DNA from: Escherichia coli
GTDB taxonomy: Bacteria; Pseudomonadota; Gammaproteobacteria; Enterobacterales; Enterobacteriaceae
Length of the DNA: 64,000 nt
Assembly (NCBI RefSeq): GCF_017348835.2
Contig: NZ_CP071375.1
Reading direction: 5' to 3' (one strand)
Part shown: positions 38,333-40,069 of the stretch, piece by piece
How the letters are laid out: every line of letters starts with the position of its first letter
Position numbering within the stretch: position 1 is the first letter of the stretch
Made by a program: the position numbers and the translations under genes
The notes under the pieces: generated by a model
The model's database searches: none
Told to the model about the DNA's origin: nothing
Seen by the model: the letters and a program-made list of their open reading frames with translations, nothing else

Positions 38333-40069
38333 ATGCCGCGTGGCCTGGAATTACTGATAGCTCAAACCATTTTGCAAGGCTTCGACGCTCAGTATGGTCG
38401 ATTCCTCGAAGTGACTTCCGGGGCGCAGCAGCGTTTCGAACAGGCCGACTGGCATGCTGTCCAGCAGGCGATGAAAAACCGTATCCATCTTTACGATCAT
38501 CACGTTGGTCTGGTCGTGGAGCAACTGCGCTGCATTACCAACGGCCAAAGCACGGACGCGGAATTTTTACTGCGCGTCAAAGAGCATTACACCCGGCTGT
38601 TGCCGGATTACCCGCGCTTCGAGATTGCGGAGAGCTTTTTTAACTCCGTGTACTGTCGGTTATTTGACCACCGCTCGCTTACTCCCGAGCGGCTTTTTAT
38701 CTTTAGCTCCCAGCCAGAGCGCCGTTTTCGTACCATTCCCCGCCCGCTGGCGAAAGACTTTCACCCCGATCACGGCTGGGAATCTCTGCTGATGCGCGTT
38801 ATCAGCGACCTGCCGTTGCGTCTGCACTGGCAGAATAAAAGCCGTGACATTCATTACATCATTCGCCATCTGACGGAAACGCTAGGGACAGACAACCTCT
38901 CCAAAAGTCATTTACAGGTGGCGAACGAACTGTTTTACCGCAATAAAGCCGCCTGGCTGGTAGGCAAACTGATCACGCCTTCCGGCACATTGCCATTTTT
39001 GCTGCCGATCCACCAGACGGACGACGGCGAGTTATTTATTGATACCTGCCTGACGACGACCGCCGAAGCGAGCATTGTTTTTGGCTTTGCGCGTTCTTAT
39101 TTTATGGTTTATGCACCGCTGCCCGCAGCGCTGGTCGAGTGGCTACGGGAAATTCTGCCAGGTAAAACCACTGCTGAATTGTATATGGCTATCGGCTGCC
39201 AGAAGCACGCCAAAACCGAAAGCTACCGCGAATATCTCGTTTATCTCCAGGGCTGTAATGAGCAGTTCATTGAAGCGCCGGGTATTCGTGGCATGGTGAT
39301 GTTGGTGTTCACGCTGCCGGGCTTTGACCGTGTATTTAAAGTCATCAAAGACAAGTTCGCGCCGCAGAAAGAGATGTCTGCCGCTCACGTTCGTGCCTGC
39401 TATCAACTGGTGAAAGAGCACGATCGCGTGGGCCGAATGGCGGACACCCAGGAGTTTGAAAACTTTGTGCTGGAGAAGCGGCATATTTCCCCGGCATTAA
39501 TGGAATTACTGCTCCAGGAAGCAGCGGAAAAAATCACCGATCTTGGCGAACAAATTGTGATTCGCCATCTTTATATTGAGCGGCGGATGGTGCCGCTCAA
39601 TATCTGGCTGGAACAAGTGGAAGGTCAGCAGCTGCGCGACGCCATTGAAGAGTACGGCAATGCCATTCGCCAGCTTGCCGCTGCTAACATTTTCCCGGGC
39701 GACATGCTGTTTAAAAACTTCGGTGTCACCCGTCACGGGCGTGTGGTTTTTTATGATTACGATGAAATTTGCTACATGACGGAAGTGAATTTCCGCGACA
39801 TCCCGCCGCCGCGCTACCCGGAAGACGAACTTGCCAGCGAACCGTGGTACAGCGTCTCGCCGGGCGATGTTTTCCCGGAAGAGTTTCGCCATTGGCTATG
39901 CGCCGACCCTCGAATTGGGCCACTCTTTGAAGAGATGCACGCCGACCTGTTCCGCACTGATTACTGGCGCGCACTACAAAACCGCATACGTGAAGGGCAT
40001 GTGGAAGATGTTTATGCGTATCGGCGCAGGCAAAGATTTAGCGTACGGTATGGGGAGATGCTTTTTTGA
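38333..40069 (+). CDS. aceK: Isocitrate dehydrogenase kinase/phosphatase
   Basis: 578-aa [27 protein letters not shown]...; third gene of aceBAK. Confidence 0.95.

Follow-up and report, generated by a model that had tools for sequence, protein, structure and literature searches.

The coding sequences of aceK and arpA (espL4) overlap tail-to-tail by exactly 32 bp in Escherichia coli, and this overlap is very likely a structural scar of a horizontal insertion and not a designed dual-coding element. It was studied in a window consisting of the whole stretch of 64,000 nucleotides of E. coli chromosomal DNA that was analysed (contig NZ_CP071375.1 of assembly GCF_017348835.2), and positions given below refer to this window unless stated otherwise. 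The overlap and its two partner genes are as follows:

38333..40069, + strand: aceK CDS, isocitrate dehydrogenase kinase/phosphatase, 578 aa (open reading frame list, Pfam, NCBIfam, RefSeq)
40038..42224, - strand: arpA/espL4 CDS, 728 aa, ShET2/EspL2-family N-terminal domain plus ankyrin repeats, AT-rich (open reading frame list, Pfam, RefSeq)
40038..40069, both strands: convergent overlap, 32 bp (bases read)

The original prediction, according to which the last 32 bp of the two genes are shared, is borne out by the open reading frame list and by the bases, and the same coordinates are found in the RefSeq annotation of E. coli PE164, which has the same two CDSs, and in the K-12 reference annotation. 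On the + strand the overlap reads ttT AGC GTA CGG TAT GGG GAG ATG CTT TTT TGA, which corresponds to AceK residues F569-F578 and the stop codon, and on the - strand it reads (ct)C AAA AAA GCA TCT CCC CAT ACC GTA CGC TAA, corresponding to ArpA residues L719-R728 and the stop codon. Each stop codon falls within the coding sequence of the partner, the arrangement that characterises convergent overlaps produced by 3' extension. The aceK stop (TGA, 40067-40069) lies inside arpA codons K720/L719 and the arpA stop (TAA, 40040-40038 on the - strand) lies inside aceK codons F569/S570; both stops are unambiguous, and no different true stop or start was found for either gene. Over the 4.6 kb around the overlap, identity is 100% with strain PE164 and about 98% with many other strains. 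In the RefSeq annotation of K-12 MG1655, where aceK (b4016) occupies 4218596..4220332 and arpA (b4017) 4220301..4222487, the overlap is identical in length and sequence, and there is no structural difference from the window strain, whose genes show only scattered substitutions elsewhere. The overlap is thus already known, as the K-12 reference annotation has included it for decades, and its class is a common and well-understood one; the anatomy of the junction described here is a small addition to this known feature. Convergent overlaps make up about 7% of well-characterised overlaps and have been attributed to 3' extension after loss of a stop codon, and the survey that reported this treats overlaps above 60 bp as suspect (PMC2478687). 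The aceK/arpA overlap is of the same class and origin, and its 32 bp are under the 60-bp threshold; however, unlike in generic convergent overlaps, a single indel junction appears to have displaced both stops here and the event can be retraced nucleotide by nucleotide.

Both partners are genuine protein-coding genes, as indicated by Pfam, NCBIfam, PDB and the lengths of their open reading frames. AceK matched both Pfam AceK domains (E values of 1e-112 to 1e-121) as well as an NCBIfam equivalog model, and three crystal-structure entries of AceK were deposited with the sequence of a 578-aa protein ending in YGEMLF. One PDB chain, 4P69, contains residues 4-571 only. ArpA matched Pfam PF07906 (Toxin_15/ShET2) at 2.1e-95 over residues 121-379 and Ank_2 with 32.5 bits against a cut-off of 27.3, so that it has the N-terminal ShET2 (Toxin_15) domain followed by ankyrin repeats that is characteristic of the ShET2/EspL2 family. 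RefSeq gives the arpA product the name EspL4, which would make it a putative type III effector of this family. In K-12 the gene is named arpA and its product described as an "ankyrin-like regulator", whereas in most RefSeq genomes it is called espL4 or "ShET2/EspL2 family type III secretion system effector toxin". No NCBIfam model matched ArpA, a PDB search with it gave matches to ankyrin repeats only, and a word-indexed search returned only E. coli proteins from the same locus. All of the close relatives (76% identity or more) are encoded at the aceK locus, and no arpA orthologue outside this locus was found in the homologue searches. An exhaustive HMMER search found 784 relatives, of which the distant ShET2/ankyrin ones align only to about residue 640-690 and none past about residue 690.

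Different shortened forms of arpA were also encountered. An in-frame internal deletion of 612 bp (corresponding to window 40473-41084) removes several ankyrin repeats and leaves a 524-aa ArpA, and this form is common (4,354 members in protein cluster P0005, vs 11,592 for the 728-aa form). The gene was additionally observed as truncated 427-aa forms and as frameshifted pseudogenes, and it seems to be decaying in many lineages.

The evidence for an insertion comes from strains in which arpA is missing. In the arpA-less strain E. coli FDAARGOS_497, aceK encodes 574 aa ending in ...RFSVRFV*, and the stop codon of iclR, on the other strand, is located 16 nt further on. The same RFV* ending, with a spacer homologous to that of arpA-less E. 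coli, is present in E. albertii. Alignment of the window with these sequences delimits the following features:

40049..40053: left junction of the indel; arpA-less E. coli and E. albertii are homologous to the window through TTTAGCGTnCGGT (possibly nTG)
40050..42533: AT-rich indel of about 2.48 kb (arpA and a 0.3-kb upstream region), in place of which the empty aceK-iclR site has about 19 nt (attcgtataaatcagaggc)
42541..43365, - strand: iclR CDS, the original gene convergent with aceK, as seen in arpA-less genomes and most other sampled species

Past TTTAGCGTnCGGT (possibly nTG) the arpA and arpA-less states diverge completely, and this point is inside the overlap; when arpA-less genomes were compared by megablast with a probe from the window, the match ended at 40044-40047. 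On the right side, homology resumes at 42534 (gaaaaagtca, where tca is the iclR stop). The AT-rich character of arpA in contrast to aceBAK, which had been remarked upon earlier, is confirmed by a G+C content of 0.33-0.42 across arpA and its upstream region vs 0.50-0.585 across aceBAK and 0.50-0.58 in the flanks. The segment has both a deviant composition and a presence/absence polymorphism with a defined empty site, and it can be regarded as an islet on these grounds. The 728-aa arpA is its sole long open reading frame, no other one exceeding about 76 aa. Signs of mobility were looked for, and there are no direct or inverted repeats bracketing about 40050 and 42533 (short chance matches only), no integrase and no tRNA. 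The position of the junction allows the two tails to be divided. AceK is native up to R572-Y573 (40046-40051), and G574-E-M-L-F578 with the TGA (40052-40069) is antisense island DNA; ArpA is encoded by the island up to about P724, and (H725)-T726-V727-R728 with the TAA is the antisense of native aceK codons F569-Y573. In K-12, as in the 578-aa protein that was crystallised, the last 5-6 residues of AceK are hence translated antisense island DNA and not conserved enzyme sequence.

The arpA-containing arrangement predominates in E. coli. A 200-bp probe centred on the junction was covered to at least 80% in 4,103 of 5,426 complete E. coli genomes, and the equivalent probe from an arpA-less strain was covered in 1,305 E. 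coli genomes. This division agrees with the phylogroup pattern of the Clermont scheme (PMC10145502), where groups A, B1, C, D and E score positive for arpA and groups B2 and F score negative. Outside E. coli, one genome per species was sampled, giving 80 aceK loci that range from E. albertii to Yersinia, Serratia and Pectobacterium but do not include E. fergusonii or the cryptic Escherichia clades; arpA was not found within 5 kb of aceK in any of these 80 species, and most of them have iclR converging with aceK. As E. albertii and arpA-less E. coli share the RFV* ending and the spacer, and as the outgroups are empty, the empty site is very probably ancestral and arpA was inserted into it, which is also consistent with its foreign base composition. 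The original prediction had further suggested that the overlap is a long-standing feature of the locus. This is correct within arpA-positive E. coli, where the overlap is found in K-12, in the 4,103 genomes mentioned above and in divergent alleles; however, it does not apply to the ancestral locus, since arpA is not found beside aceK in 1,305 E. coli genomes, in E. albertii or in 79 other species.

One could alternatively suppose that arpA is ancestral, that the arpA-less state of B2/F E. coli and E. albertii came about by deletion, and that the 574-aa AceK is the derived form. Presence or absence by itself gives no polarity, the phylotyping scheme reports arpA in clade I besides A, B1, C, D and E, and arpA alleles have been proposed to move horizontally between phylogroups. 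Nevertheless, we consider this possibility very unlikely, because all 80 of the non-E. coli species lack arpA beside aceK, because independent deletions would not regenerate the shared RFV* and the homologous 16-nt spacer, and because the composition of the islet is foreign. An inserted arpA is compatible with a more complex past, and as clade I is arpA-positive in the phylotyping scheme, the gene may have undergone transfer or loss by recombination instead of a single clean gain. Within the sample, a contig labelled Edwardsiella ictaluri ATCC 33202 (comparison locus L013) has an AceK that is 90% identical to that of E. coli and an Enterobacteriaceae-like aceK-iclR arrangement, which is unexpected for this genus; it may represent a contaminant or a transfer.

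Based upon these observations, the overlap can be accounted for as follows. In ancestral Escherichia, aceK (574 aa, ...RFSVRFV*) and iclR would have converged, their stops lying about 16 nt apart. About 2.48 kb of AT-rich DNA with arpA/espL4 would then, in one E. coli lineage, have replaced about 19 nt, including the last aceK codon and its stop; we infer that this happened in a single step. Deprived of its stop, aceK would have run on for 5-6 codons into antisense island DNA (G-E-M-L-F) up to the first in-frame TGA at 40067-40069, and arpA would have run on for 3-4 codons into antisense native aceK ((H)-T-V-R) up to the TAA opposite AceK F569/S570, the two run-ons together making up the 32 bp. 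An overlap of this kind is the expected outcome of an indel junction that removes both stops. In the frame used by arpA the first antisense stop occurs after 4 codons, whereas the other two frames would have continued for 12 or 25 codons, giving overlaps of 58 or 96 bp. The new tails would have been tolerated, and presumably both were neutral, because AceK is unconserved beyond R572-[Y/F]573. The aceK and arpA transcripts would each have to end within the opposite gene, whatever the manner of their termination. The locus can be viewed as a clean textbook case in which a single insertion would have yielded a reciprocal convergent overlap.

The overlap showed no sign of extra constraint or of dual-coding selection. 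The 60 bp around it are identical in 3,833 genomes and the whole locus is about equally conserved, although this identity is also compatible with constraint. In two divergent alleles, there are 3 changes in the 32 bp of the overlap (90.6% identity), compared with identities of 97-98% for aceK and 93-97% for arpA. The tails of both proteins vary among alleles, that of AceK being YGEMLF, YGEIFY or YGEMAF, and variants of the ArpA tail including KKPSPHTAR. The length of 32 bp is retained in the divergent alleles and also in the common arpA form with the 524-aa product. A variant with five instead of six T residues in the homopolymer run at 40061-40066 was also observed; it changes the reading frame of both genes, so that AceK has 579 aa (...MLFE*), ArpA is extended by 21 aa and the overlap measures 99 bp. 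It occurs in five assemblies (L086 and L091-L094), where aceK is fragmented or not called in three and is an intact 579-aa gene in two; as 3 of the 5 are otherwise fragmented or uncalled for aceK, it may be a long-read homopolymer error and we do not accept it as an established polymorphism.

The original prediction had also held that the overlap leaves no room for terminators. There is indeed no intergenic space and no terminator was predicted there, but this is not due to the overlap, as the spacer in arpA-less strains is also only about 16 nt. A scan for intrinsic terminators near the junction gave 2 weak sites against 2.0 expected, neither of them at the junction, and RNA folds of the two strands at the junction were no better than those of shuffled controls (z = 0.68 and -0.01). 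The - strand of the empty site folds slightly better than its shuffles (z = -2.26), and the shape is not that of a terminator. No bidirectional terminator, consisting of a G+C-rich hairpin between an A-tract and a T-tract, is predicted at the gene ends. At the right end of the islet, a 7-bp inverted repeat without mismatches (GGGCAGA-N8-TCTGCCC, 42508-42529) was noted by eye immediately downstream of the stop codon of iclR; there is no T-run adjoining it, and it is not a canonical terminator.

An arrangement of this kind could in principle have been selected, convergent transcription giving rise to antisense RNA or interference that couples AceK dosage, and thereby the glyoxylate shunt, to arpA/EspL4 expression. 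As no terminator separates the two genes, transcripts of either one that read through would be antisense to the mRNA of its partner. In addition, 3,833 genomes share an identical junction segment, and in the BL21(DE3) transcriptome aceK expression was very low with premature termination inside aceK (PMC5435950). However, arpA was reported to show no expression in BL21(DE3), although B strains carry a disrupted copy of it (PMC5435950). Further, in divergent alleles the overlap is more variable than its flanks, the genes of the glyoxylate shunt are kept without arpA by 24% of E. coli genomes and by every other species sampled, and arpA frequently decays by the 524-aa internal deletion, truncations and frameshifts. 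We hence regard a selected regulatory function as quite unlikely. Apart from phylotyping papers and a single remark in the BL21 transcriptome study, our search of the literature for work on the overlap, the chimeric tails or the regulation of arpA at this locus gave no results. That the overlap is an artefact of annotation, with one of the reading frames not real or ending elsewhere, is extremely improbable. It is true that arpA is without a demonstrated function in K-12 and has no NCBIfam model, and that many convergent overlaps in databases are erroneous 3' extensions (PMC2478687). However, stop codons do not depend upon gene-calling choices, an uninterrupted reading frame of 728 codons in DNA of 37% G+C with a Toxin_15 match of 2e-95 cannot be due to chance, the three AceK crystal entries are of 578 aa and end in YGEMLF, and the pair of reading frames is kept in alleles down to 93% nucleotide identity. 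An artefact is thus effectively refuted by the sequence.

A comparison across the sampled species indicates that the end of AceK is generally free to vary. The protein is conserved up to ...RRQRFSVR[Y/F] (R572-[Y/F]573), and the tail that follows ranges from 0 to about 30 aa across the 80 species; in Salmonella and Citrobacter it is apparently a translated REP-type repeat (RRPDKA). The orthologue without an overlap, in arpA-less E. coli and E. albertii, has 574 aa and ends in RFV*, as compared with 578 aa and RYGEMLF* here. Among 81 loci with aceK and iclR, the two genes overlap by 4 nt in 13 and by 47 nt in three. Overlaps of 4 nt were seen in Cedecea, Buttiauxella, Mangrovibacter and Shimwellia, and those of 47 nt in a Pluralibacter MAG, Enterobacter quasihormaechei and Pseudescherichia vulneris, as well as in E. 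coli HS-02. As in the overlap with arpA, the aceK tail past R572-[Y/F]573 enters the convergent gene in these cases, but the partner is the native iclR and not a horizontally acquired gene. In the arpA-less strain HS-02 (NZ_CP172818.1, locus L089, 3059-3151), aceK encodes 588 aa, the conserved RQRFSVRF is replaced and the overlap with iclR is 47 bp.

Other DNA was also found between aceK and iclR. In E. coli LP5-1 (NZ_CP101866.1, locus L090, 3100-4628), the place of arpA is taken by a C5 DNA cytosine methyltransferase gene (473 aa, Pfam DNA_methylase 7.7e-80, G+C 0.44). Its left junction follows TTTAGCGTGCG, at the position in aceK where arpA also joins, and the AceK tail is RYPSQV*. Elsewhere in the Enterobacterales, TacA/GNAT and ParE/Phd toxin-antitoxin pairs and a CTP_transf_1-family gene are present in the gap, and in Serratia an Edd-like dehydratase and a permease. 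The loci with such cargo are:

L012, L014, L017, L029, L061, L068, L069, L072, L077, L079, L081: cargo in the aceK-iclR gap

In the empty state, there are about 22 nt from AceK codon 573 to the iclR stop, and because only this much is available, an insertion between aceK and iclR is likely to hit the aceK stop. It could be speculated that this gap of about 22 nt is a recurrent landing site for foreign DNA throughout the Enterobacterales, each arrival rewriting the AceK tail, and that in arpA-positive E. coli the overlap might allow interference between aceBAK and arpA transcription, but we consider this unlikely. If it were true, the terminator-less overlap would tie arpA, a type III effector-like gene, to acetate metabolism.

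The junction also bears upon the quadruplex PCR of Clermont, for which two primer sites are located in this region:

39659..39678, + strand: AceK.f site (degenerate form; primer match)
40039..40058, - strand: ArpA1.r site (TCTCCCCATACCGTACGCTA), wholly within the overlap and spanning the indel junction

The "arpA" amplicon produced by AceK.f and ArpA1.r corresponds to 39659..40058 (400 bp), and since ArpA1.r bridges the indel junction, the PCR scores the presence or absence of arpA. What this "arpA" PCR really assays is the indel junction inside the overlap, and substitutions there will also alter both protein tails. Single substitutions in the primer region are known to affect typing, e.g., G17A in ECOR44 (PMC7656184). 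In the Clermont typing literature the arpA amplicon is treated as a marker, and we found no discussion there of the coding overlap or the chimeric tails. These practical points are small, and the overlap is of little importance for biology at large.

Some further observations concern the sequences on either side. In strains 2900 (locus L087, 5593-6200) and EC556 (locus L088, 5592-6199), the 3' 608 bp of iclR shows 92-94% identity to the window, as compared with 98-99% in other strains, which suggests that the iclR segment beside the arpA allele of these strains may be recombined or divergent. The aceA-aceK spacer (38150-38332) contains three REP-like palindromic units at about 38174-38208, 38219-38257 and 38272-38306, and due to these units the locus gave multi-copy matches (median of 16 places per genome). 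This spacer has a length of 183 bp in the window and in K-12, 86 bp in FDAARGOS_497 and 48 bp in 2900 and EC556. Lastly, the K-12 ORF-internal small RNA AceK-int (b4830, 4218879..4218963), which appears in RIL-seq and 3'-end mapping papers, corresponds to about 38616-38700 of the window.
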